The position numbers and the translations under genes were made by a program. Below, one piece after another: positions 41,969-58,748 of a DNA stretch of 64,000 nt; positions within the stretch are counted from its first letter, which is position 1, and each line of letters opens with the position of its first letter. The stretch is from an uncultured Alphaproteobacteria bacterium. GTDB lineage: Bacteria; Pseudomonadota; Alphaproteobacteria; Sphingomonadales; Sphingomonadaceae. The notes beneath the pieces were generated by a model, which was not told the DNA's origin, searched no databases, and saw only the letters and a list, made by a program, of their open reading frames with translations. The DNA is taken from the NCBI GenBank assembly GCA_963829325.1, contig CAWHHN010000002.1:272772-336771 (forward strand). The letters are read 5' to 3'.

Positions 41969-42290
41969 TGCATCCTCATTAGGTTTCTAATCGGGACCAA
42001 GTTGGTAAGCGCGCTCCCATTCGCGGTCAAGCAAGCGGCGCCGATGGATCGGCGCGAGCATCCCCGCCCCGGCCAGCGGGCCGCAAAGACCCTTTGTCGA
42101 GGTGTGATATGGCGGCAACACCCGGGCACCCAAACTGGCCGAAATGTAACAAAAGCTTTGCATTGCGGGGGGCGCTGGGAGCACATGCCACGTTCCACAG
42201 GGGGGGTGCCCGAATGGATCCGCATTCCCTCCAGGAGTCCTTAGGAGTTCCGACCCCAGGGGCGGATCGATCAAAAGAGGGATTATCAGA

Positions 42291-45200
42291 GTGAAACTCC
42301 AAACTTATTTCAAAGCCAGCACGGCTCCCGCCGTCCTCGGCCTTGCCCTGCTCTCGCAGCCGGTGCTGGCCCAGGCCACAGATGACGAACCCGGCGTCCA
42401 GCCTGCTGCCGGCGTCGATGGCGACGAGCTCGGCACTTCAGGCCAGGCCATCGTGGTCACCGGCTCGCGCATCAAGCAGCCGAACCTCGAGTCGGCCAGC
42501 CCGGTTACCGTGATCGGCTCCGAGGAGATTACCCAGACCGGAACGACCCGCGTCGAGGATCTCGTAAACTCGCTTCCGCAAGTATTCGCCGGACAGGGTT
42601 CGACTATCGCGAATGGTGCGACCGGCACCGCCACGCTCAACCTGCGCGGCCTCGGTTCGGAGCGCACCCTCGTGCTCGTCAACGGCCGTCGTCTCGTCCC
42701 GGGTGATCCGACCACTTCGGCTGCCGACATCAACGTCATCCCGGCAGCAATGATCGAACGCGTCGACGTGCTGACCGGCGGTGCCTCTTCCGTGTACGGT
42801 GCCGATGCCGTGGCCGGCGTCGTCAACTTCGTGATGGACACCGACTTCGAAGGCTTCAAGCTCGACACCCAGTATTCCGTCTACAACCACGATAACCGCA
42901 ACCGGAGCGTCTACACCGATCCGCTCGATGCGCGCGGCTTCGGCTATCCGCGTGGCTTGGTCACCGATGGCGGCACCTTCGACGCCACGCTTTCCTTCGG
43001 TGCCGGCTTCGACGATGGCCGCGGACACGTGATGGGCTATCTCGGCTACCGCAAGATCGATCCGATTACGCAGAACAAGCGCGATTATTCGGCCTGCGCC
43101 CTCTCCGCGGCGGCAGCGGGTGGCTACACCTGCGGCGGCTCGGCCACTTCGCCGACCGGGACGCTTTTCTACTACGACGATTTCGACGACACGACCGACC
43201 TCGTCGGCGGCGGTCCTGATGGTGATCAGCCGGACGGTGTCGCGGATTCGTTCACGTCGACCATTGGCCAGTTCGGCCCCAACCGGACGCTTTTGCCCGG
43301 ATTTACGCCTTACAACTTCGCCCCGCGGAACTATTACCAGCGGCCTGACGAGCGTTATGTCGCCGGTGTCTTCGCCGATTACGAGATCTCGCCCGCGCTG
43401 AAGCCCTACATGGAATTCATGTTCATGGACGACCGTACGGTCGCCCAGATCGCGGAATCCGGCGACTTCGGCAACACGGTGTCGATCAACTGTGACAACC
43501 CTCTGCTCGGCCCGGACCAGTTGGCTCAGATCTGCGACGACGAGAACCTTCTCGTCAGTCCGCTCGCGATCGATGCCTTCACCACCGTCGGCAACGTTGC
43601 AGCAGAAAATGCCGCGCGCGCCGCTCGCAACATCGGTGAACCACTACTGCCGACCACGCCGTACCAGTTTGGTTCCGCCGGCAGCCAGTATACCCGTGGC
43701 TTCGCGCAGATCCTGCGTCGTAACGTCGAAGGCGGTCCGCGTCAGGACGACCTTCAGCACACCAGCTATCGTGCGGTTCTGGGCATGCGCGGCGACATCG
43801 ATCCAGTGTGGTCGTATGACGCGTACTACCTCTATGGACGTACCAACTTTGCTCAGACCTATCTGAACGATTTCTCGGTTACGCGCCTGACCCGTGCGCT
43901 CGACGTCGTCGACGATCCGAACACCCCCGGTGTTCTCGATCCGGTATGTCGTTCGGCAATCGATGGCACCGATCCGAATTGCGTGCCTTACAACATCTTC
44001 TCGCCCGGTAGTGCTGCTCCTTCGCAGGCAGCGATCGACTACCTGTCGACCCCCGGCTTCTCGCGCGGGATCGTCAGCGAGCAGGTGGCCTCGGCCTATG
44101 TGTCGGGTTCGCTCGGCAACTACGGCCTTCAGAGCCCGTGGTCGTCCGAAGGCATCGGGCTCGTGTTCGGCGCGGAATACCGCAAGGAACGGCTGGAATT
44201 CCAGTCGGACGTCGCATTCCAGACCGGCGATCTCGCGGGTCAGGGAGCACCGACCTTGCCGGTGAACGGCTCGTTCGACGTGAAGGAATTCTTCACCGAA
44301 GCCCGTATCCCGATCGTCCAGGACGGTTTCCTGTACGACTTCTCGATCACCGGCGGTTATCGCTATTCGGACTACAGCACCGGCGCGACCACCGATACCT
44401 ACAAGATCGAGGGTGAACTTGCTCCGACCCGGGACATCCGCCTCCGCGGCGGATACAACCGTGCGGTGCGTGCGCCCACGGTGCAGGATCTCTTCGCTCC
44501 GCAGCGTGTCGCACTCGACGGTTCGACCGATCCGTGCGCGGGCACTTCGGATAGTCCGCACGGCCCGATCACTTCGAGCGATATCGGCTGCCTCGCCAGC
44601 GGTTTGACCGTTGGTCAGGTGGTCGCTCCGAACCCGGCGGCACAGTACAACGGCCTGATCGGTGGCAACCCCGATCTCGTGCCGGAAATTGCCGATACCT
44701 ACACCGTGGGTGTGGTGCTTACGCCGACGTTCCTGCCCGGGTTCAGTGCCTCGGTCGACTACTTCAACATCAAGGTTGAAGGCGCGATCCAGGGCATCGG
44801 TGCCGATACGATCCTCGAGCAGTGCGATCTCGATACGGCCGACGCGTACTTCTGCAGCCTCGTCAATCGCGATGCTTCGGGTTCGCTCTGGCGCTCGTCG
44901 AACGGTTTTGTGACCGATCTGTCGCAGAACATCGGCAAGCTTGCGACCTCGGGCGTCGACGTGCAGGCAGCTTACGGTCGTCAGATCGGCAGCGCCGGTC
45001 GTCTGAACCTGTCCTTCGTCGGTACCTGGCTCGACTCGAACCGGTTCAACCCGGGCGTACCGGGCCTCGAGGACACCGAATGCGTCGGGACCTACGGCAA
45101 CGTCTGCGGTACGCCGACTCCCGAGTGGCGTCACCAGGCTCGCGTTGGCTTCGACTTCGCCAACGGCGTCGGGGCTTCGGTCCGCTGGCGTCACTTCGGC

Positions 45201-45464
45201 TCGGTCGTGGTCGACAATCTGTCGGCGACCACACAGCCGGGCATCGCCGGTTTCGACGCCCAGAACTATATCGACCTGGCATTCACCTACGAGATCGGAG
45301 ATCACTACAACTTCCGTCTCGGGGCGAACAACGTCTTCGACAAGGAACCGCCGATCACGGGTTCGCAGGCTTGCCCTGCCGGATTCTGCAACGGCAACAC
45401 CTACTCGCAGGTGTACGACGCCTTGGGTCGTTATCTCTATGCTGGCGTGACGCTTGAGTTCTAA
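42291..45464 (+). CDS. TonB-dependent receptor (Cys-rich loops), TBDR1
   Basis: Signal peptide, TonB box IVVTGSRI, NLRGLG..RTLVLVNGRR, ERVDVLTGGASSVYGADAVAGVVN, C-terminal LEF. Confidence 0.96.
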   Translation: MKLQTYFKASTAPAVLGLALLSQPVLAQATDDEPGVQPAAGVDGDELGTSGQAIVVTGSRIKQPNLESASPVTVIGSEEITQTGTTRVEDLVNSLPQVFAGQGSTIANGATGTATLNLRGLGSERTLVLVNGRRLVPGDPTTSAADINVIPAAMIERVDVLTGGASSVYGADAVAGVVNFVMDTDFEGFKLDTQYSVYNHDNRNRSVYTDPLDARGFGYPRGLVTDGGTFDATLSFGAGFDDGRGHVMGYLGYRKIDPITQNKRDYSACALSAAAAGGYTCGGSATSPTGTLFYYDDFDDTTDLVGGGPDGDQPDGVADSFTSTIGQFGPNRTLLPGFTPYNFAPRNYYQRPDERYVAGVFADYEISPALKPYMEFMFMDDRTVAQIAESGDFGNTVSINCDNPLLGPDQLAQICDDENLLVSPLAIDAFTTVGNVAAENAARAARNIGEPLLPTTPYQFGSAGSQYTRGFAQILRRNVEGGPRQDDLQHTSYRAVLGMRGDIDPVWSYDAYYLYGRTNFAQTYLNDFSVTRLTRALDVVDDPNTPGVLDPVCRSAIDGTDPNCVPYNIFSPGSAAPSQAAIDYLSTPGFSRGIVSEQVASAYVSGSLGNYGLQSPWSSEGIGLVFGAEYRKERLEFQSDVAFQTGDLAGQGAPTLPVNGSFDVKEFFTEARIPIVQDGFLYDFSITGGYRYSDYSTGATTDTYKIEGELAPTRDIRLRGGYNRAVRAPTVQDLFAPQRVALDGSTDPCAGTSDSPHGPITSSDIGCLASGLTVGQVVAPNPAAQYNGLIGGNPDLVPEIADTYTVGVVLTPTFLPGFSASVDYFNIKVEGAIQGIGADTILEQCDLDTADAYFCSLVNRDASGSLWRSSNGFVTDLSQNIGKLATSGVDVQAAYGRQIGSAGRLNLSFVGTWLDSNRFNPGVPGLEDTECVGTYGNVCGTPTPEWRHQARVGFDFANGVGASVRWRHFGSVVVDNLSATTQPGIAGFDAQNYIDLAFTYEIGDHYNFRLGANNVFDKEPPITGSQACPAGFCNGNTYSQVYDALGRYLYAGVTLEF

Positions 45465-45486
45465 GCACCACACCGATTAGACAGGG

Positions 45487-45520
45487 AATGGCGGGCCTTC
45501 GGGTCCGCCATTTTCGTTTT
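45487..45520 (+). terminator. Intrinsic terminator/attenuator after TBDR1
   Basis: AATGGCGGGCC-TTCG-GGTCCGCCATT followed by TTCGTTTT. Confidence 0.85.
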
Positions 45521-45524
45521 GACG

Positions 45525-47099
45525 ATGCTCGACCCTGGAGAGGGAAATGATTTTTGCCGTGGATCATCCCACTTGAGCCGGGAAGCCACATCGATCTCGC
45601 TTCGCTCGGTATCGCCAAGCGATCCGGTGCGAGCTTTCCGCGCGGGACTGGCAGCTCTTCATGCGGATGACGCGGAGATCCTGCTGCCTTTTGCCCGCGA
45701 CTGGGCCGAAAAGTCGCCGCGCGATCCACGGCTTCAGCAATTGCTCGGTCTCGCCGCGCGCAGTGCGGGCGACAGCGCCACCGCATGGAAAGCCTTTGCC
45801 GAGGCCGCCGCTCTGGCCCCGGGCGATCCACTCATCGCACACTCCCGCGCCCGAACGGCGCTCGAGGCAGGGCACTTATCGGTCGACCTGTTCGACCGCG
45901 CGGCGGTACTGGCCCCGCGCGACGGTTCGGTCCTTCTCGGAAAGGCTGCTGCCCTCTTGCAGGACCATGGCCCCGAAGAGGCGACCTCTTTCCTTTGCGA
46001 ACTGATCCGCAGCAATCCCGGATGGATCGACGGCCAACGGAGCCTTGCGCATCTACTTGGCCAGATGGGTGAGTGCCCCGTCAGCGAAATCGACCGCGCG
46101 CTCGGACGATTCCCGGATAATGAAGAATTGAGCCGGCTGAAGATCGGTATCCTGCTGGAAGCGCGCTTGCACGAGCGCGCCGCCGCCGCTTGCGAGATGT
46201 CCTTGGGCAGATTGGGACAACGCCGTTGGCTGGTGCTGCTCGCTGCCCATACAGCATCGGAGCTCGGCCGGCTGGAAGAGGCCGACACGCTCTTCACCCA
46301 GTGCGGGAATCCTCAAAACGTCGAGGAAGTCGGAACGGTCGCACGCCATCTTCTGCGCGCCCAGCGGCCGGTGGAGGCCTGCTCCTCTGTCGAGCCCTGG
46401 ATCGCAGAGGACTGCGACAACCTCCTCTGGCCATACCTTTCGCTCGCTTGGCGAATCACCGGCGACGACCGTTGGCGATGGCTGGAAGGCGACGAGCGAC
46501 TGGTCGGCACTTACGATCTCACCGGCACGCACGGCGATCTGTCCGCTATCGCCGATCACGTCCGCGACCTCCATTTCGCAAAGGCACCGCCTCTGGATCA
46601 GTCGGTACGCGGCGGAACCCAGACCGACGGCAACCTTCTTCTCCGCGACGAGCCGCCGATCGTCGCATTGCGTGCAGCGATCCGCGAGGCAGTCGCTGCG
46701 CATATCGAAGCGCTTCCCGAGCCGGACGACCTGCATCCCACCCTGCTGCGCGACCGCCATCCGCAGCGTATCGCCGGTTCGTGGTCCGTCCGGCTCACCG
46801 GAGCCGGCTTCCACGCCGATCACGTTCACTCGCAAGGTTGGTTCAGTTCTGCCTTCTATCTCACCGTTCCGGAAGCGCCCCCTGGAGATGCGGGGTCGCA
46901 GAACACTGCGGGATGGCTCAGCCTGGGCGAATGCCGCGAGCTGGTCACCGATCTCGCTCCTTCGCGGATGATCGAGCCCAAGCCGGGCCTTTTGGTGCTC
47001 TTTCCATCAACAATGTGGCATGGTACTCGCGCTTTTCCTTCGGGCGAGCGGATGACCGTTGCATTCGACATCGCCCGGCCAAGCCAGAAAAATCGGTGA
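45525..47099 (+). CDS. TPR-repeat protein with C-terminal putative 2OG-Fe(II) oxygenase (start uncertain)
   Basis: Helical TPR-like N-half; QSVRGGTQT, WSVRL..GFHADHVHSQGWFSSAFYL, VLFPSTMWHGT, RMTVAFD; no signal peptide. Confidence 0.85.
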   Translation: MLDPGEGNDFCRGSSHLSREATSISLRSVSPSDPVRAFRAGLAALHADDAEILLPFARDWAEKSPRDPRLQQLLGLAARSAGDSATAWKAFAEAAALAPGDPLIAHSRARTALEAGHLSVDLFDRAAVLAPRDGSVLLGKAAALLQDHGPEEATSFLCELIRSNPGWIDGQRSLAHLLGQMGECPVSEIDRALGRFPDNEELSRLKIGILLEARLHERAAAACEMSLGRLGQRRWLVLLAAHTASELGRLEEADTLFTQCGNPQNVEEVGTVARHLLRAQRPVEACSSVEPWIAEDCDNLLWPYLSLAWRITGDDRWRWLEGDERLVGTYDLTGTHGDLSAIADHVRDLHFAKAPPLDQSVRGGTQTDGNLLLRDEPPIVALRAAIREAVAAHIEALPEPDDLHPTLLRDRHPQRIAGSWSVRLTGAGFHADHVHSQGWFSSAFYLTVPEAPPGDAGSQNTAGWLSLGECRELVTDLAPSRMIEPKPGLLVLFPSTMWHGTRAFPSGERMTVAFDIARPSQKNR

Positions 47100-47107
47100 C
47101 TGCCTGG

Positions 47108-48985
47108 ATGTCTTCCGTCGTTTCCGCCCCTCCCCGAGCCCTCGCCGACGCCATCCGGCTGATGCGATCCGGCGATCTTGCGGCTGCCTTGCGGACAGCC
47201 GAGGGCGCTCTTGCCGATGCTTCCGATCGGGCGCCATTTCTGGCGCTGGCCAGCCTTGCTGCACTTCGCCTGGGGAAAGCCGCGGAGGCAGTGCCTCATC
47301 TGCGCGAACTCACTACCCTCCACCCTGACGACAAGGCAAGTCGCAACAATTTCGTCACCGCGCTTGCCGAAGCAGGCGAAATTGACGAAGCGCTGGCGCT
47401 TGCCGCGGGCTCGAAAGAACCGGCTCTTGCGCGGGTGGAAGGCCACATCCACCAACAGAGGGGCGAGCTCGACCTGGCCGCCGCTGCCTATCAGCGGGCG
47501 CTAGATGGGGATCCCAACGATCTGACCAGCGTCAACAATCTCGGCAACGTTCTGACCTCGCTCGAGCGGTTCGACGATGCCATCCATGCGTTCGAACGTG
47601 CCATCTCGCTGGCTCCGGCGGATGTTCCCATCTATCTCAATCTTGCCGAGACCCTGCGCATCGCCGACCGTCCGGGGCCGCGGGTGAAGGTCCTAATGGA
47701 TGCGCTGGCCATCGCACCGACGAACCTGCGCGTCCTGACCGACCTGGGAATGGCCCAAGCGCACAACGACGAAATCGATCAGGCGATGGAAACATTGCGC
47801 CGCGCCATGGCGCTGGCAGACGGTTTCAGCGAAGCGCATATCGAATATGGAATGCTCCTCGAAAGCTTGAACCGCACGGACGAGCTTGCCGATCTTGTCC
47901 GCAGCTTCAAACGCGAAGACGCCCCGCCCGAAGCCGCCTATCTCATAGCTTGGGACGCTCGGCGAGCAGGCGATTTCGAAGAGGCCTCACGGATCGCCGA
48001 AGTGATCCCCGACTCCGTCAATCCGATGCGCCGCTGGCAGCTGGTCGGCGGGATCGCCGACCGGATGGAAGATGCCGCGAAAGCGTTTTTGGCGTTCGAG
48101 CGGATGAACGCCGCCGCGCTGGTCGACGCGCGCGCCGAGGTCGGCCCCACCTATCGCGAGAGGGTCGAAACCCAGTTGCGTAACTGGACCCCGTCCTGGG
48201 CCGCAAGCTGGAGCGATCTCGCACCGTCTGACGACGGGTTGAAGGATCCTGTGTTCCTCGTCGGTTTTCCGCGCTCCGGAACGACGCTGCTCGATACCAT
48301 GCTGATGGGTCTTCCCGAGCTGAGCGTGCTGGAGGAACGTCCGATGATGGCGCGGGTAGCGCGAAGCGCAGCCGACGAAACGCTGCCCACGATGACGCCC
48401 GCCCGCATCGCCGAACTGCGCAGCACCTATTTCGCCGCGGCGCGCGAGTTCGGCTGGGACGAGACAAGATGGCTGGTCGACAAGCATCCCCTGAACATGC
48501 AGCGCGTCCCGCTCATCAGGCGCATCTTCCCGAACGCCCGTATCATCCTGGCAGAGCGCCATCCCTACGACGTGGTGCTGAGCTGCTTCATGGCGAACTT
48601 CACCCTCAATCACGCCATGCGCAGCTTCACTTCGCTCGACGAAGGCGCCCGCACCTATGATGCCGTGTGGCGGGCCTGGAGCAAGGGCGTGGAGCTTTTC
48701 CCGGTCGATTGGCAGGCGGTGAGATATGAGCGGCTGGTCGACGACCCGCGCGCCGAACTCGAACCGCTGGTCGAGTGGCTGGGACTCGAATGGAATCCCC
48801 GGCTACTCGAACACACCGATATCGCGCGCGAACGCGGTCAGGTCCGGACCGCAAGCTATTCCCAGATCGGCGAGCAGCTCTACACCCGCGCGCGCTACCG
48901 CTGGCGTCGCTATAGCGAGCACCTCGCGCCGGTCATGCCGATCCTCAGGCCGTGGGCAGAGCGGCTCGGTTACGAAACCGCCTAG
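47108..48985 (+). CDS. TPR-repeat sulfotransferase (Sulfotransfer_3/TPST-like)
   Basis: TPRs (NNLGNVL); PAPS-binding PVFLVGFPRSGTTLL, DKHPLN, RHPYDVVLSCF, VRTASYSQ; no signal peptide. Confidence 0.9.
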   Translation: MSSVVSAPPRALADAIRLMRSGDLAAALRTAEGALADASDRAPFLALASLAALRLGKAAEAVPHLRELTTLHPDDKASRNNFVTALAEAGEIDEALALAAGSKEPALARVEGHIHQQRGELDLAAAAYQRALDGDPNDLTSVNNLGNVLTSLERFDDAIHAFERAISLAPADVPIYLNLAETLRIADRPGPRVKVLMDALAIAPTNLRVLTDLGMAQAHNDEIDQAMETLRRAMALADGFSEAHIEYGMLLESLNRTDELADLVRSFKREDAPPEAAYLIAWDARRAGDFEEASRIAEVIPDSVNPMRRWQLVGGIADRMEDAAKAFLAFERMNAAALVDARAEVGPTYRERVETQLRNWTPSWAASWSDLAPSDDGLKDPVFLVGFPRSGTTLLDTMLMGLPELSVLEERPMMARVARSAADETLPTMTPARIAELRSTYFAAAREFGWDETRWLVDKHPLNMQRVPLIRRIFPNARIILAERHPYDVVLSCFMANFTLNHAMRSFTSLDEGARTYDAVWRAWSKGVELFPVDWQAVRYERLVDDPRAELEPLVEWLGLEWNPRLLEHTDIARERGQVRTASYSQIGEQLYTRARYRWRRYSEHLAPVMPILRPWAERLGYETA

Positions 48986-49009
48986 GCATCTCGGCGCGGC
49001 GAAGGACGC

Positions 49010-49300
49010 TCAGTTGCCTTCCTTCCAGCGCGCCGCCTGAGCTTTTTCGAGCGTTTGCCGGAGGATCGCCTGTTCGGCCGCCCATTGGCGCTTGGTCTGG
49101 CAGCGCTTGGCCGCCTTGAGGCGCGAGCCGGTCGCCTTTGCGGACTTGCAGACGATCTTGTCCATATCCGGGTCGGCTCCCTCGTCTGCCGTCGCCGTCG
49201 CGTCGGCCGGGTCGGCGGGCTTTGCGGGCTCCCCGGCCCAGGCGGTCGAAGCGGCGCTCAGGGCCAATGCGGAAATGAGCAGCTGCGCAGCGCGTTTCAT
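49010..49300 (-). CDS. Small secreted two-Cys protein
   Basis: Signal peptide ending AWA; IVCKSAKATGSRLKAAKRCQTKRQW; ATG 49300 with GGAG Shine-Dalgarno. Confidence 0.75.
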   Translation of the reverse strand: MKRAAQLLISALALSAASTAWAGEPAKPADPADATATADEGADPDMDKIVCKSAKATGSRLKAAKRCQTKRQWAAEQAILRQTLEKAQAARWKEGN

Positions 49301-49458
49301 CGGATAAGTCTCCATCGACGATAAGAAAAAGATGCCGGCAGGATACCCTAGCGCGGGCTCCAGGTCCAATTTCTTCGGGAGAGGCCCTCCCCCACTGGAT
49401 TTCGCCGGTGGAGGGGATATGGTCGGGCGCCTCGACGCCAGCAAGGGAGAGGAACAAG

Positions 49459-50025
49459 ATGACCGGAAGGACACGTGTGCGCATCGGGACCATGATGGCG
49501 ATTGCGGTTCCAATGGCGATCTTCGCGAGCACGCCTGCGCTTTCGCAAGATGGCCAGGCGGCTCCCAAGGCCAATGGCTACCTCGAATCGCTGAAGGCAT
49601 GTCAACGACTGTCCGAGCCCGGAGCGCGGCTGTCGTGCTTCGATTCAGCCGCTGCTACGATGGTCGAGGCGAGCGAGGCCGGCGATATGAAGATCGTCGA
49701 TCGCCAGGATGTCCGCGAGACGCGACGCAAGCTGTTCGGCTTCTCGCTGCCCGATCTGGGCATCTTCGGCGGGGGCGACGACAAGCAGGATGAGGAAGAC
49801 GAATTCGAGCAGATCGAGACGACCATCGCCGCGGTCTCGGGCTCCCATGCGACCGGCTACCTGCTGCGTACCGCGGAGGGCGCCGTCTGGCGGATCGACG
49901 ACGTGCCGCGGCGCCTGCTCACCCCCGAGGTCGGCGACAAGCTGCTGATCAAGAATGGCGCGCTGACCTCTTTTTTCCTTCGCATCAACGACAGAGGCGG
50001 CGTCAAGGGCGTGCGGGTCAGGTGA
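49459..50025 (+). CDS. Secreted hypothetical protein with N-terminal Cys pair and beta-rich C-terminus
   Basis: Signal-like N-terminus; ACQRLSEPGARLSCFD; RETRRKLFGF; GAGGA Shine-Dalgarno before ATG 49459. Confidence 0.72.
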   Translation: MTGRTRVRIGTMMAIAVPMAIFASTPALSQDGQAAPKANGYLESLKACQRLSEPGARLSCFDSAAATMVEASEAGDMKIVDRQDVRETRRKLFGFSLPDLGIFGGGDDKQDEEDEFEQIETTIAAVSGSHATGYLLRTAEGAVWRIDDVPRRLLTPEVGDKLLIKNGALTSFFLRINDRGGVKGVRVR

Positions 50026-50071
50026 GCTTCGCGTTCCGTCCGGACTGATTCCACCTAGTCCCGACACGAGA

Positions 50072-50103
50072 ACGCCCGGCGTGCTGTCCAGCGCGCCGGG
50101 CGT
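50072..50103. terminator. Hairpin between convergent genes (probable bidirectional terminator)
   Basis: 14-bp stem ACGCCCGGCGTGCT-GTCC-AGCGCGCCGGGCGT. Confidence 0.65.
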
Positions 50104-50123
50104 CTTCGGTTTTGTTGGACGTG

Positions 50124-52127
50124 CTACAGCCCGCCGGGGCCGCAGTCGTTCGCGAGGAAGTCGAGCATCTTGGTGTAGAACTGCTCCTGATGCTCATACA
50201 TCAGCGTGGTGTAGAAGTGGTCGGCACCCTTCAGCGTCAGGAACTGGGCATCGGTCTTGCCGGCCTGCTGCAGCGCCTTCCGGTAATCCTCGAAATTGAA
50301 GTACAGCACACGGGAATCGACGTCGCCGTGAACCATCAGGATCGGGACGTTGACCTTGGACACTTCCTTCATCGGATTGATACCGATCATGCCGCGGCGT
50401 TGCGACCATTCGTCGAGCGCCTTGGGGCTGTAGGGATTGCGACGCAGCTTGTAGACCTTCTCGGGGTCAGCAACCGCCGCCCCGGCGATGACGCACTGGT
50501 ACATGTTGGGTTCGCGCGATGCCGCAACCAGCGCCGCATAGCCGCCATAGGACCAGCCGAACATGGCGACCCGGTCGGGATCGACCAGCCCCTGCTCGAT
50601 CAGGTATTTCGCCCCGTCGTCCTTGTCGTCCTGCATGGCGAGGCCGTGCTGGCCATAGGCCGAATCGAACAGCTCCTGTCCCCAGCCCACCGACATCCGG
50701 TATTCGGGCTGGAGGACCATATAGCCTGCATTGGCCAGCAACTGTCCCCACTCGTCGTAACCGACGACCTCGTTCACGTGGGGCCCGCCGTGCGGGAGGA
50801 CCACCAACGGGAAGGGACCCTTGCCCTTGGGCTTGGTCACATAGCCCGAGAGCGTCTTGCCGTCGCGCGTCGGATAACGGATGAACTCCACGTCCGACAA
50901 CTGCTCGGGCTGGAGCAGCGGATTGCGGCTGCCGAGCTTGGCCATCCGGCCGTCGCGGATCAGCCAGTACGAACCCGGATCATGCGGTCCGCTGTTGTAG
51001 ACCACCATGGTGTCGCCATCGCGCGAACGGCTGGTGATCGAAACCGAATGGGCATAGGGGATCTGCGCCTCGAGCGCCTCGTAGAGCGCCTTTTCCTCGG
51101 CATCGAACCACACCCGTTCGCGCTTGTCCCAGGGGTAGCGTGCCGCGACCAGCGTATCCTTGCCGGGCAGCGAATGGGTCTGCGTCCACATGATGTCGGC
51201 CTTGTCGGTGCCCGCGAGCTTCTCGCCGAACTGGCCGGTCTCGAAATTGAATTCCCACAGCGCGGCCTTGTCCTCGCCGCGGTTGTCGATGATGTAGCCG
51301 ATGTTGGGGTTGTTGGGATCGAAGCCCTTGATGCCCATGAACCCGCCGAGCACGCGATAGAGATTTTCGTGCTTGTCGTAGTCGTAGGTCTGATCGAGCT
51401 TCTTCCATGAACGGTCGCCGGGTGCGCGGTAGTAATAGACCAGTTCGTTCGACCCCGGCTCGACCGAGCTGGTCCAGCGGGGATTGCCGTCGGCGTCGAA
51501 CTCGGCGGTCGGATATTTCTCGCTCCCCTTCAACACCAGTTCGCGCGTGCCGCGCTCTAGATTGAAGCGGTAGTAGGAACGCGGGCGGAAGGCCGCGAAG
51601 GGATCGACGCCGGTGCCGTCGGCCACCGCATTGCCCGATCCGATCAGAATCTCGTTCGGCTCCTTGGGCAGCTTGCCGACGAGTTCGAAATTGCCCGGCA
51701 GCTCCTGAAACTTGTTGGCCTTGAGATTGTAGGAAAAGGCCTTGTAGTCGTAGGTGCTTTCTTCGGGTCCTTTGACCGAATGGCGGTTCTGCTCCCACGC
51801 AGTTCCGAAGATGTAATTGTCGCTCACCCATTGAACCTGGATGATCTCCATGGGGTCGGCGTTGAGCCGCCGAAGCGGCTTCGACATATCCTCGGTATCG
51901 TAGATCTCGAGAAGGTAGTCGCCTTCCTTGCTCTCGAGCTTCTGCACCAGGACATGCTTGCCGTCGGGCGAAACCTCGACGTCATTGATCACATCGCGCA
52001 ACGCCCAGACCTCGAGCGGGACCGTGGGGTGGCCGGGGGTCGTCTGCGCCACTGCGGGAGCGGCGGGCTGGACGAGGCACAGCGCACCAGCGGCCGCTGC
52101 CATGAGGGTTGATTTGAAATGGTTCAT
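50124..52127 (-). CDS. Periplasmic S9 (prolyl oligopeptidase family) peptidase
   Basis: Signal peptide; PHGGPH, GWSYGGY (Ser), HGDVDSRV (Asp), GADH (His). Confidence 0.93.
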   Translation of the reverse strand: MNHFKSTLMAAAAGALCLVQPAAPAVAQTTPGHPTVPLEVWALRDVINDVEVSPDGKHVLVQKLESKEGDYLLEIYDTEDMSKPLRRLNADPMEIIQVQWVSDNYIFGTAWEQNRHSVKGPEESTYDYKAFSYNLKANKFQELPGNFELVGKLPKEPNEILIGSGNAVADGTGVDPFAAFRPRSYYRFNLERGTRELVLKGSEKYPTAEFDADGNPRWTSSVEPGSNELVYYYRAPGDRSWKKLDQTYDYDKHENLYRVLGGFMGIKGFDPNNPNIGYIIDNRGEDKAALWEFNFETGQFGEKLAGTDKADIMWTQTHSLPGKDTLVAARYPWDKRERVWFDAEEKALYEALEAQIPYAHSVSITSRSRDGDTMVVYNSGPHDPGSYWLIRDGRMAKLGSRNPLLQPEQLSDVEFIRYPTRDGKTLSGYVTKPKGKGPFPLVVLPHGGPHVNEVVGYDEWGQLLANAGYMVLQPEYRMSVGWGQELFDSAYGQHGLAMQDDKDDGAKYLIEQGLVDPDRVAMFGWSYGGYAALVAASREPNMYQCVIAGAAVADPEKVYKLRRNPYSPKALDEWSQRRGMIGINPMKEVSKVNVPILMVHGDVDSRVLYFNFEDYRKALQQAGKTDAQFLTLKGADHFYTTLMYEHQEQFYTKMLDFLANDCGPGGL

Positions 52128-52161
52128 CGGGCGACTCTCACAAGATTCGGTGGGGATTTCA

Positions 52162-52203
52162 AATGAAAAGGGCGGTTCCAGACCGAAAACTGGAACCGCC
52201 CTT
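52162..52203 (-). terminator. Intrinsic terminator/attenuator after TBDR2
   Basis: Perfect 14-bp stem AAGGGCGGTTCCAG / CTGGAACCGCCCTT followed on the minus strand by a T-rich tail. Confidence 0.85.
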
Positions 52204-52228
52204 CGCGTTTCATTCTAGATGCGAGGCA

Positions 52229-55200
52229 TCAGAATTCGTAGCGGACCGAGGCAAAGAACTCGCGTCCGTCGTAGTCGTAGCCGTTGCCGATCGCGGTGTT
52301 GGCGATGGCGAGCACTTCATTGCTGTCCACCAGCGGCGGAGCAGTGTTGAAGATGTTGTCGACGCCCGCGATGATCGTGAAGCGATCGGCACGGTAGCGG
52401 ATCGACGCCGTGTGCAGGAACTGGGCATCGGCGAAGCCCACGTCGCGGCAGAAGTTGCCGTCGCCGGCGACGACGCCGCTCGGCGATCCACCGCCGGTGC
52501 AGGTGTCGCTGAAGAAATCAGCGCTACCGTCACCGTCGACATCGGCCGGGTTGCCGTCAGGACCATTGCCGAAGACGTCGGCGAAGGCGTCGATACCGTC
52601 GGGGTCCTGCTCGACCGGCCCGACATAGCGGGTAGACCAGGTGAAGCGGAACTTGTCGATATCCGCGGTGAACTGGGCATTGCCGGTCCACTTGGGGAAA
52701 CCGAATTCACCCGTTGCATCGTCGAACGAACGGCGTCCATCGTCGTCGACGAACAGCGAACTGCGTTCGATCAGATGGTTGGCACGCAGCGTGATGCCGA
52801 AGTCGATGAACTTGCCGAACATCGGCACTTCCTTGCCCAGATAGGCGTTGAAGTCGATGCCGCGCACGCTTTCTTCGTCCTGGTTGGTGAAGGTCGGCTG
52901 CACATCCGAGATCAGCCCGCGGCTCGATGGCGTCGCGCCATAGGCCAGGAGATCGCAGAAGGTGCTGCGGGTGCCGTCATCGCGCAGGAAGCAGTCGTTG
53001 ATGATGAACTGCGTGCTGAGCTCGATGATCGAGTCCTTCACCTTGATGTCGAAGTAGCTTGCACCCAGCGAAACGTCGAAGCCTTCACCGAAGGTTTCTT
53101 CGAACGCGAACCCGGCAGTGATCGACCGCGACGTTTCGGGATCGATGTCGAAGCTGCCTGCGGTCTCGACTTCGATGCTGGTCGTGCTGACCGTGTTCGA
53201 ACCGTTGGTACCGACCGTGAACGGGTCGCGACCTTCGCGCTGACAGGCGGCGATCACGTTCCCACCGCGAGTATCCTTGCCTGCCTGATAGCCCGGATTG
53301 GTCGGATTGAGCGGCTCGTATGCATCGCTCGGCACGGCGCAGGGATCGAACAGGGTAAGGAAGCCCGACTGGCCGAGCAGGAAGTTCTCGCGGAGATTCG
53401 GTGCGCGGAACGACGTGCCGTAGCTCATCTTCAGCAGCAGCGGATCGATCGGTCTCCAGCCACCCTTGATCGAGTAGGTGAAGTTCGTCCCGTAGAACTC
53501 GTCGTTGGTGACGCGGCCGGACAGGTTCAGGCTAAGCTCGCGAACCCAGGGCTTGTCCGCCTGAAGCGGAATGTCCAATTCGGCGAATGCTTCCTTGGTG
53601 ACCTTGCTGCCGACGGCCCCGCGGTCGCGGAAGAAGCCGAAGAACAGGCCGTTCGATGCCACGTCATTGGGCGAGGAATCGATGCGATCCTTGCGGAATT
53701 CGACGCCGAGCACCGCACCCACCGGACCGGCCGGAAGAGTGAACAGATCGCCGGTCATGAACGCATTGCCGATGATCTGCTCGTAGGTGGTGTCAAAACG
53801 ACGGGTCCCGAACAGATAATCGCGTTCGGCCTGGCTGCCGAAATCACCGATGGCGCCGGTCAGCAGGCTCGGAGCGAACAGATTGACCGGAACGCAGCCC
53901 TGCACGAGATCGGGCATTGCGAGGTCGGGATTGGCAAGACCCGCGGCGTTGCACGGTCCGATGTTGAGCGTGTCACCAGCGAAGAGATCGAGGTTCGAAT
54001 CGTAATCGTCGGCGATGCCGTCGCCCGGACCGTCGGCGACGCCGTCGCCATCGGTGTCGGTGTCGTTGTCCGCGATCCCGTCGCCGCTGAAGTCACCGGT
54101 CGGATCGATGCCCAGCGCGAACGCCAGCTTGTCTTCGCGGACGCCCTGGCGGATCGAAACGCCTTCCGAGCGCGAGTAGACGCCCGAAACCTCGAAGGTC
54201 CAGCTCGGCGAGATGAACGGCAGGTCGCCGCGGACGCCCAATACGCCACGATAGATTTCCTGCGTGACGTCGGTGTTGTTGCGATCGCCGCGGACGGCGA
54301 CGATCGGGCTGACCGGCAGGCTGAAGCCGTAGGTCCCGCGCGGGTTGCCCGGAACTCCCGGTGGGTTGTAAACCGGGAAGTTGTTGATCGCGTTGTCGAT
54401 TTCGCGACAGTCGACGCCATCGGGATTGGTGTCGATGTTACACGGGTTGAAGGCGTTGTCAGCCGGCACGTAGGGGAAGATCTGCGGAGTGCCGGTGTTG
54501 TCGGCATAGATCTCCGCGCGGCTGAAATTCGCCTCGAAGAACGGCGTGATGTTGCCCGCGCCGGGGAAGGTGTACTCGCCATAGGCCATGACGTTGAACA
54601 GCTTCTGCTGGCTCAGGAAAACCTGATCGATGTTCTGACCGTTCGTGTTGACGTCCTGGAAATCGACATCGCGGATTCCGTCGCCGTCGTTGTCGACCGG
54701 CTCGCCGAAGGCGTTGGTCGATTCCGAATAGGGGAAGTTCGGGAAGCCCGGGAAGTTGCCGCTACCGTCGGGATCGAAGTAGATCGAGCCGGAGAAGTTG
54801 TAGGGGTTGAAGATGCGGCCCGAAATGCCGGTGACCTTACATTCGTTCTCCGAGACCGAAATCGTGCCGCCCGAATCTTCGAGCACCAGCGCGTTGTCGT
54901 ATTTGCCAACCGTATAGATGTTGCCATCCTGGTCGATCTCGTAGTTCTTGTCGCATCCGCGCAGGAAGTCGCGGTCGCTCAGGCGCACGGTATCGCGATA
55001 GTCGTACTCGGCGCCGATGCCGATGAAGCCGCGGTCGAAGTTGAGGCCGTAGGCTGCGCTGACGGTATAGTCGTCGCCGCCGCCCTGCGGGTTGATCTCG
55101 CCGCGACCATAGAGTTCGAGCCCGTCGAAATCCTTGCGCAGGATGACGTTGCCGACACCTGCAACGGCGTCCGAGCCATAGACCGACGATGCGCCGTCGA

Positions 55201-55795
55201 GCAGCAGGTCGTAGCGATCGATGAGCGAACCCGGGAGGAGGTTGATCGACGGGTTGACCGGTGCGCCTTCGACGCCGGAAGGCGCAAGACGCCGTCCATT
55301 GAGCAGGAGCAGCGTGCGATTAGCGCCGAGGCCACGCAGGTTGAGCGTCTGCGAACCGGGGCCATTGTCGAGCACGAAGCCCTGGAAAGTGGCGTCGATC
55401 TGCTGGCCCGAGGCGGATTCCGAACGCTGGAGGATCTGCGAGGGATCGAACAGACCCGCTTCGTTCGATGCTTCGGTGGTCAGGACCTGGAGCGGCGAGA
55501 TGCTGCTGTAGGTGTCGCGCTTGATGCGCGAGCCGGTGACGACGATGCCGCCTTCGGCCTGCTGGCCGGTGGCACCGACGTCGGTGACGTCGACGACATC
55601 CTGCGCACCCGGGTCATTGCTGGTGACGCCATCGGGGCCCTCGCTCTGGACGACGCATTCGCCGCCCACTTCTTCCTGGCCGGCGGGGCAATCGAGATCG
55701 GTGTCCTGCGCCATCGCCTGACCGCCGGCGACGAGCGCCATTGCGGACACGGAGACCGCGAGCCCCCTGACCGTATTCTGATGAATTTTTCGCAT
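52229..55795 (-). CDS. Large TonB-dependent receptor with Asp-rich and Cys-pair loop insertions, TBDR2
   Basis: Signal peptide MRKIHQ...AMA, IVVTGSRI, NLRGLGANRTLLLLNGRR, DGASSVYGSDAVAGV, C-terminal YEF; ATG 55795. Confidence 0.96.
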   Translation of the reverse strand: MRKIHQNTVRGLAVSVSAMALVAGGQAMAQDTDLDCPAGQEEVGGECVVQSEGPDGVTSNDPGAQDVVDVTDVGATGQQAEGGIVVTGSRIKRDTYSSISPLQVLTTEASNEAGLFDPSQILQRSESASGQQIDATFQGFVLDNGPGSQTLNLRGLGANRTLLLLNGRRLAPSGVEGAPVNPSINLLPGSLIDRYDLLLDGASSVYGSDAVAGVGNVILRKDFDGLELYGRGEINPQGGGDDYTVSAAYGLNFDRGFIGIGAEYDYRDTVRLSDRDFLRGCDKNYEIDQDGNIYTVGKYDNALVLEDSGGTISVSENECKVTGISGRIFNPYNFSGSIYFDPDGSGNFPGFPNFPYSESTNAFGEPVDNDGDGIRDVDFQDVNTNGQNIDQVFLSQQKLFNVMAYGEYTFPGAGNITPFFEANFSRAEIYADNTGTPQIFPYVPADNAFNPCNIDTNPDGVDCREIDNAINNFPVYNPPGVPGNPRGTYGFSLPVSPIVAVRGDRNNTDVTQEIYRGVLGVRGDLPFISPSWTFEVSGVYSRSEGVSIRQGVREDKLAFALGIDPTGDFSGDGIADNDTDTDGDGVADGPGDGIADDYDSNLDLFAGDTLNIGPCNAAGLANPDLAMPDLVQGCVPVNLFAPSLLTGAIGDFGSQAERDYLFGTRRFDTTYEQIIGNAFMTGDLFTLPAGPVGAVLGVEFRKDRIDSSPNDVASNGLFFGFFRDRGAVGSKVTKEAFAELDIPLQADKPWVRELSLNLSGRVTNDEFYGTNFTYSIKGGWRPIDPLLLKMSYGTSFRAPNLRENFLLGQSGFLTLFDPCAVPSDAYEPLNPTNPGYQAGKDTRGGNVIAACQREGRDPFTVGTNGSNTVSTTSIEVETAGSFDIDPETSRSITAGFAFEETFGEGFDVSLGASYFDIKVKDSIIELSTQFIINDCFLRDDGTRSTFCDLLAYGATPSSRGLISDVQPTFTNQDEESVRGIDFNAYLGKEVPMFGKFIDFGITLRANHLIERSSLFVDDDGRRSFDDATGEFGFPKWTGNAQFTADIDKFRFTWSTRYVGPVEQDPDGIDAFADVFGNGPDGNPADVDGDGSADFFSDTCTGGGSPSGVVAGDGNFCRDVGFADAQFLHTASIRYRADRFTIIAGVDNIFNTAPPLVDSNEVLAIANTAIGNGYDYDGREFFASVRYEF

Positions 55796-56158: not shown

Positions 56159-58748
<2,590 letters not shown>

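Follow-up and report, generated by a model that had tools for sequence, protein, structure and literature searches.

A widespread gene module pairs a TonB-dependent receptor with TPR-fused oxygenase and sulfotransferase enzymes in sphingomonads

In a 64,000-nucleotide stretch of DNA from an uncultured alphaproteobacterium of the Sphingomonadaceae (GenBank assembly GCA_963829325.1, contig CAWHHN010000002.1, positions 272,772 to 336,771; hereafter, the window), the gene for a TonB-dependent receptor, TBDR1 (42291..45464, + strand; 1057 aa), is followed by genes for two enzymes bearing tetratricopeptide repeats (TPR)—a 2-oxoglutarate (2OG)/Fe(II) oxygenase of the 2OG-FeII_Oxy_5 family (PF13759; 45519..47099, +, from the open reading frame start at 45519) and a sulfotransferase of the Sulfotransfer_3 family (PF13469) that uses 3'-phosphoadenosine 5'-phosphosulfate (PAPS; 47108..48985, +; 625 aa). 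The block represents a widespread gene module, here reduced to two enzymes, whose conserved unit is the receptor, the TPR-oxygenase, and the TPR-sulfotransferase, usually accompanied by two small exported proteins, smallA (49010..49300, −; 96 aa) and smallB (49459..50025, +; 188 aa). That the module exists and is conserved is close to certain. As for its role, we tentatively lean towards modification of an exported envelope protein by the enzymes before its export, and consider a small-molecule role nearly as likely.

A conserved core and a variable slot

All seven genes that a preliminary description of this DNA had placed between TBDR1 and a second receptor, TBDR2, are present (the five large genes were matched by Pfam at the positions first given, and the two small ones were recovered by translation), and profile searches found neither carbohydrate-active nor siderophore-synthesis genes among them, as had been noted there. 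In genomes of the same genus and family, TBDR1, the oxygenase, the sulfotransferase, smallA (on the opposite strand), and smallB recur as a block at 55–77% identity, which in Erythrobacter mangrovi and Tsuneonella is flanked by the same thiolase operon and clpB gene. The same arrangement is seen in dozens of species, and our genome holds only about 21 Plug domains in 2.73 Mb; a chance association of receptor and enzymes is strongly excluded.

A pattern scan of species-representative genomes returned at least 590 loci with relatives of the oxygenase, and we surveyed the best 80, all of which belong to the Sphingomonadales. Of the 62 loci with enough DNA, 59 have a same-strand receptor of the TBDR1 clade upstream, a TPR-sulfotransferase is present at 64/71 Sphingomonadales loci, and the smallA motif occurs at 34 of the 80 (three spurious matches were set aside). 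Eighteen loci carry an additional gene of 1.2–1.6 kb between receptor and oxygenase, which, where checked, encodes a TPR protein with an Asp_Arg_Hydrox domain (PF05118), and some clusters hold two TPR-Oxy_5 genes; it is these additional genes in relatives that identify the window's block as a reduced version. At the loci checked, the number of tailoring enzymes with a TPR arm thus reaches four in a full cluster.

The conserved unit is smaller than the 'twin-TBDR island' first proposed. An S9 (prolyl-oligopeptidase family) peptidase with a signal peptide (50124..52127, −; Pfam 7.7e-38) and TBDR2 (52229..55795, −; 1188 aa, Pfam-matched, true start MRKIHQ) accompany the core at only three of the 80 loci, plus the same-genus genome G398, and we rejected them as parts of the system on this count. 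The slot after smallB is variable—several genomes have a different receptor there, Tsuneonella suprasediminis has a receptor and an S9 peptidase in forward orientation, and the inverted S9-TBDR2 pair occupies it in our genome and G398. The peptidase and TBDR2 are a separate pair, probably for peptide uptake, and the same count tells against the earlier suggestion that the peptidase handles a peptide resembling ribosomally synthesized and post-translationally modified peptides.

Linkage of the receptors to the enzymes

TBDR1 and TBDR2 both have the signal peptide, TonB box, Plug domain, and 22-strand barrel of TonB-dependent receptors; in TBDR1 the TonB box reads IVVTGSRI and the Plug and barrel domains match Pfam at 8e-24 and 5.4e-28, respectively. 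Siderophore receptor models resemble TBDR1 only in its plug region, and the other receptors of its own genome score no more than 102 bits against it. By comparison, at 14 of the 26 oxygenase loci fetched from an even sample of the phylum (401 genomes, 23 with an oxygenase homolog), the adjoining receptor scores 400–1500 bits against TBDR1. When 43 receptors were placed in a tree, the 17 with an oxygenase homolog beside them all grouped in one clade (Shimodaira-Hasegawa-like support 97–98), which includes members from another proteobacterial class. TBDR2 lies outside this clade, and a link between TBDR2 and the sulfotransferase is therefore unsupported by gene association; the acidic repeat loop, GDG(I/V)AD, that the preliminary description pointed out in TBDR2 lies at 53995–54110.

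Association with receptors extends to paralogs of the sulfotransferase. Among the 20 best TPR-sulfotransferase paralog loci in 41 related genomes, 17 adjoin a TonB-dependent receptor of varied subfamilies (seven identified by BLAST, and ten, of 790–930 aa and from other subfamilies, by Pfam), mostly with the receptor first and the sulfotransferase after it on one strand, separated by 10–125 nucleotides (nt). Pairwise distances among receptors and among their sulfotransferases are correlated (Mantel r 0.74 for 27 pairs, and 0.49 for the 21 pairs left after dropping close orthologs; none of 5000 permutations was as high in either case), a correlation that is partly due to shared species history. 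The surroundings of the pairs differ widely, including major facilitator superfamily and nitrilase-type genes, NamZ, a glutamine-synthetase-like gene with DAO, and an AspH-family gene. These catabolic contexts are unrelated to one another, and the constant partner of the sulfotransferase is thus the receptor and not a pathway. Together with the upstream receptors of the TBDR1 clade and the single clade in the tree, these loci bear out the linkage of both TPR enzymes to receptors, for which a neighbourhood survey had been set as the test.

Two further arrangements of such genes were observed. In low-GC gammaproteobacterial genomes (loci L099, L103, L104, and L112), a TBDR1-clade receptor immediately precedes a TonB2-type energy cluster (DUF3450, a large MotA/ExbB protein, ExbB, ExbD, and TonB), and at L112 a TPR-sulfotransferase is inserted between the two. 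Our own genome has a second pair, on contig C2 at 406291–410300 (L115), in which a 792-aa TonB-dependent receptor is convergent with a 520-aa Sulfotransfer_3 protein whose N-terminal part of about 200 aa is not called TPR by Pfam.

The two TPR-fused enzymes

The oxygenase (490 aa in the database call, which starts at 45627) scores 64.7 bits against PF13759 (cut-off 27) and does not reach the related NCBIfam model TIGR02466 (24.4 versus 62.5). Its predicted structure (predicted local distance difference test, pLDDT, 93.6; predicted template modelling score, pTM, 0.90) has about 290 aa of TPR helices followed by a double-stranded beta-helix domain, and the iron triad (H396-x-D398 and H465) and the 2OG-binding arginine (R475) are invariant in 42/42 aligned orthologs. 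The best full-length matches in the PDB are to the TPR-plus-oxygenase form of human AspH (Foldseek, about 500 columns, E 3e-9, TM-score about 0.3), with TM-scores that are low because the domain orientations differ; at the level of the domain, the relatives are the uncharacterised structural-genomics proteins 2rg4 and 3bvc. A build in which a TPR arm leads directly into a 2OG oxygenase domain, seen in both the secondary structure of the model and the Foldseek matches, accords with the earlier idea of a protein hydroxylase. The enzyme differs from AspH in that its catalytic domain matches PF13759 only and not PF05118, and in that EGF-type substrates are absent; true TPR-PF05118 genes do occur in the expanded sister clusters and beside one TPR-sulfotransferase paralog.

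The oxygenase family comprises 822 clusters at 50% identity (E up to 1e-30). Its paralogs include a distinct TPR-2OG-FeII_Oxy_5 protein in sphingomonads (L084, L085, L088, and L089) that has a conserved housekeeping setting and is encoded beside an RluD-type pseudouridine synthase. Of these four loci, each checked on both sides, three have a HAD hydrolase on the other flank, and one has ATP12 beyond it. No receptor lies near these four loci, and the paralog may have a different target, perhaps linked to translation. Another paralog pairs with a TPR-methyltransferase.

The sulfotransferase matches PF13469 at 120.6 bits (cut-off 27), the same family as human TPST1 and TPST2 and RaxST of Xanthomonas oryzae. 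Its closest solved structures by sequence are TPST2 and TPST1 (E ~1e-11), followed by CurM and mycobacterial sulfotransferases. In the HMMER alignment with TPST2, the motifs GFPRSGTT, LEER, DKHP, and ERHP..VLS place the 5'-phosphosulfate loop (GxPRSGTT), a glutamate pair at TPST2 E99, K158, and the equivalents of R183 and S191, so that the PAPS-binding loops and the catalytic Glu and Lys positions are kept and the enzyme is TPST-like, as first described. Its TPR arm matches the superhelices of OGT-type TPR proteins, a likeness that is for the most part shared by TPR proteins in general. A common origin of the arms of the two enzymes was considered and rejected, as they share only 27% identity over 109 aa (E 0.007). 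The genome encodes an adenosine 5'-phosphosulfate (APS) kinase, and PAPS can thus be made.

Sequence inspection found no hydrophobic N-terminal stretch in either enzyme, in agreement with the preliminary description, and both are therefore most likely cytoplasmic. A cytoplasmic location, the long TPR arm, and a receptor as gene partner set the sulfotransferase apart from TPST and RaxST. Unlike RaxST, moreover, it is accompanied by neither a RaxX-like peptide nor a peptidase-exporter: a system of the RaxST-RaxX-RaxABC type would bring a leader-bearing peptide or a peptidase-containing ABC exporter, and neither is found among the neighbours here or at orthologous loci. A published Sutterella sulfotransferase belongs to a different, periplasmic aryl-sulfate family.

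The small exported proteins

SmallA (defined by translation, ortholog alignment, and a genome motif scan) and smallB (defined by an alignment of 40 homologs and a structure model) each have, on a reading of the sequence, a Sec-type signal peptide and exactly two conserved cysteines. The ortholog alignments indicate that they are real families, and the earlier account of two divergently oriented, small secreted two-cysteine proteins holds for both.

The cysteines of smallA enclose a disulfide-type loop (C-x7-GSRL-x6-C-x-T-x3-W here; C-x(5-8)-G-[ST]-R-[LV]-x(5-8)-C-x-T-x(3)-W in the family), a motif that occurs once in our genome and is found in these blocks only. The invariant G[ST]R[LV] core is similar to the VVTGSRI of the TonB boxes in TBDR1 and TBDR2, and it is conceivable on this likeness that smallA serves as a periplasmic mimic or decoy of the TonB box. 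In smallB, both a C...RLxC(F/Y)D hairpin and a RRKLFGFSLPDLGIFG linker are invariant, and the C-terminal part forms a small beta barrel. Its model (pLDDT 76) has no PDB match at E up to 0.001, with weak likeness to OB/IF1-type barrels, and the protein matches no Pfam family. Outside the Erythrobacteraceae, smallB is mostly divergent and upstream of the TBDR1-clade gene.

Confinement of smallA to these blocks, once per genome, and the presence of a smallB homolog beside TBDR1-clade genes in 58 of 69 loci would suit a modified secreted carrier, in which one or both small proteins, once hydroxylated or sulfated and passed through Sec, would bind a nutrient or metal in the periplasm or outside the cell and dock on TBDR1, working either in the manner of a hemophore or in that of methanobactin with its MbnS sulfotransferase and MbnT receptor. 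There is precedent for such a locus in the methanobactin operons, which join a ribosomal peptide, a sulfotransferase, and a TonB-dependent transporter and so serve a modified, exported, and re-imported peptide from one place (PMC3621798). The likeness to MbnA, MbnS, and MbnT ends with the sulfotransferase and the transporter: the locus has no MbnB/MbnC core, no MATE exporter, and no evident copper link, and MbnS belongs to PF00685 and lacks TPR. Moreover, smallA is absent from about half of the clusters with a sulfotransferase, smallB also accompanies TBDR1-clade genes devoid of both enzymes, and BLAST recovered no gene resembling smallA or smallB at receptor-sulfotransferase pairs of other receptor subfamilies. 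Both small proteins also lack a conserved acidic-context tyrosine. We therefore regard a carrier of this kind as unlikely.

Possible substrates of the enzymes

No assigned function was found in the full-text literature for a receptor paired with a TPR-oxygenase and a TPR-sulfotransferase, as the preliminary description had said. We favour a polypeptide substrate because several enzymes carry TPR arms and the receptor is the sole constant partner across contexts; that several enzymes each bear a peptide-binding arm further suggests one shared polypeptide. In the mechanism we prefer, the TPR arm of each enzyme would hold an unfolded polypeptide in the cytoplasm, most likely the precursor of the cognate receptor or, alternatively, the precursors of the small exported proteins. 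The oxygenase would add a hydroxyl group, the TPST-like enzyme would transfer sulfate from PAPS to a tyrosine or to the new hydroxyl, and both modifications would precede export by Sec, with the negatively charged groups on the transport system tuning ligand capture. A more specific version, in which a paralogous enzyme-per-receptor system modifies the receptor precursor or the co-encoded small exported proteins ahead of Sec, seems to us less likely than not.

Several observations weigh against modification of an envelope protein. When TBDR1-clade members paired with an oxygenase were compared with unpaired members, no residue column separated the two (a residue in at least 85% of paired and at most 25% of unpaired members), and the same comparison for the sulfotransferase returned five non-tyrosine columns only, which are unconvincing because the sequences are related. 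Alignments of smallA, smallB, and the TBDR1 clade show no conserved tyrosine in an acidic context; smallA, which we rejected as a substrate of tyrosine sulfation, has no conserved tyrosine among its orthologs, and the N-terminal tyrosine of smallB is a histidine in several of its own. Both enzymes are missing from the vicinity of 16 of the 39 TBDR1-clade members. The resemblance between the two TPR arms is no more than generic, and part of what they share with OGT and AspH is common to TPR proteins at large. We know of no Sec-exported bacterial outer-membrane protein that is sulfated or hydroxylated in the cytoplasm.

The closest precedents for the module are CciT-CciO of Caulobacter crescentus, Fiu-YbiX of Escherichia coli, and PiuA-PiuC of Pseudomonas, in each of which the genes for a receptor and a cytoplasmic 2OG/Fe(II) oxygenase are adjacent and conserved together; CciO is, we presume, a PiuC-type enzyme. 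The module shares the adjacency of receptor and dioxygenase, with one receptor clade at nearly all surveyed loci. Its oxygenase, a PF13759 protein with a TPR arm of about 290 aa, is not of the PiuC type, its receptor of about 1050 aa is not of the Fiu/PiuA clade, Fur control is not indicated (no Fur box within 3 mismatches in the whole 64-kb window), and a sulfotransferase and small exported proteins are added.

A small-molecule role, as for CciO, PiuC, and YbiX, would have the enzymes process an imported ligand, or make or tailor a ligand that is produced by the cell and retrieved through TBDR1. CciT-CciO, the nearest studied analogue, has been discussed with a small-molecule ligand, which also speaks against protein modification: in Caulobacter, CciT strictly needs the adjacent cytoplasmic CciO by a mechanism that is still unsolved, the two are conserved together across Proteobacteria, and every published model invokes a small ligand (PMC12004947). 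The module agrees with this in that both of its enzymes are cytoplasmic and seemingly co-transcribed with the receptor, in that CurM-type sulfotransferases, which act on small acyl substrates, are among the sequence matches, and in that a hydroxylase with a sulfotransferase fits a chemistry of hydroxylation and then sulfation. It departs from it in several ways, beyond the oxygenase and receptor families and the lack of a Fur box just described—the conserved block has no scaffold-building enzyme, exporter, or inner-membrane importer, a TPR arm on every enzyme is unusual for enzymes of small molecules, and the receptor-sulfotransferase pairs recur in unrelated catabolic loci, where sulfation of the cargo makes little sense. 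On balance, this role is nearly as likely as modification of a protein, though less likely than not when taken by itself.

The host belongs to a marine Erythrobacteraceae lineage, and sulfate esters are abundant in marine organic matter, so that scavenging of organosulfates also has to be weighed. The receptor would import sulfate esters, and sulfate would be recovered either by the sulfotransferase running in reverse onto 3'-phosphoadenosine 5'-phosphate (PAP) or by oxidative cleavage by the oxygenase in the manner of AtsK. Pseudomonas putida uses sulfate esters with the 2OG dioxygenases TauD and AtsK and the TonB-dependent receptor SftP, and aryl sulfates can regenerate PAPS through sulfotransferases, both of which count in favour of such a route. 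PF13759 is not, however, the TauD/AtsK family, none of the surveyed neighbourhoods holds sulfur-assimilation or sulfatase genes, and the TPR arms would be left unexplained. Scavenging is accordingly the least probable of the explanations considered, and quite improbable.

Locus layout and genome setting

The stretch, with a G+C content of 62–70%, sits on contig C2 of a 2.73-Mb genome in three contigs, and the closest named homologs are from Qipengyuania, Erythrobacter, and other Erythrobacteraceae. TBDR1, the oxygenase, and the sulfotransferase have an operon-like layout (54 nt between TBDR1 and the oxygenase, and 8 nt from the oxygenase stop to the sulfotransferase ATG), and from this spacing and the conservation of the genes they look co-transcribed. 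From TBDR1 to smallB, the first terminator comes only at 50072, where a strong, bidirectional terminator-like hairpin (50072..50103; 14 pairs, 11 of them G-C) closes the core unit, with smallB on one side and the convergent S9 gene on the other. Between 36000 and 60000, no Rfam element, riboswitches included, was matched at E up to 0.1.

The block is flanked by an operon of thiolase, short-chain dehydrogenase/reductase, and enoyl-CoA hydratase genes on one side and by clpB on the other. The intergenic region between TBDR1 and the divergent thiolase operon contains an imperfect palindrome, GGTGTGAT-N6-CAACACC (42101–42122, +), some 170 nt upstream of the receptor gene. Orthologous loci have a TGT-N12-ACA palindrome at the equivalent place, which is perfect at L021 (GGTGTGAC-ATAGGC-GTCACACC). 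It is a candidate operator for a regulator of either operon.

The clpB gene (56165–58748, −) is broken: against E. mangrovi ClpB, frames −1 and −3 alternate at about 58656, 57600–57700, and 57400, and identity is 64% in the N-terminal half and 86% in the C-terminal half. Either it is a pseudogene or the assembly contains indel errors; the seven genes from TBDR1 to TBDR2 are intact, unlike this neighbour. Contig C3 (30.8 kb) is a near-exact repeat of the end of C2 (406–413 kb), with the same seryl-tRNA synthetase, SurE, and sulfotransferase genes. It is probably an assembly duplicate, and copy counts from this genome therefore need care.

Significance

Sphingomonads, caulobacters, xanthomonads, and marine gammaproteobacteria rely on TonB-dependent receptors as a main way of taking up nutrients. 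The only studied pairs of such a receptor with a cytoplasmic enzyme—CciT-CciO, Fiu-YbiX, and PiuA-PiuC—matter for iron uptake and the entry of cefiderocol and are mechanistically unsolved. Judged by the number of oxygenase clusters and loci reported above, the module described here is a second, much larger class of receptor-enzyme pairs, and because it forms a tight unit of two or three genes, the question of its substrate is directly testable in culturable relatives. If the enzymes are directed at a ligand, the module would point to a new class of hydroxylated, sulfated compounds. If they modify envelope proteins, tyrosine sulfation and side-chain hydroxylation would be added to the biology of the bacterial outer membrane, and, should the precursors be the targets, these would be the first sulfated or hydroxylated transport proteins of that membrane.

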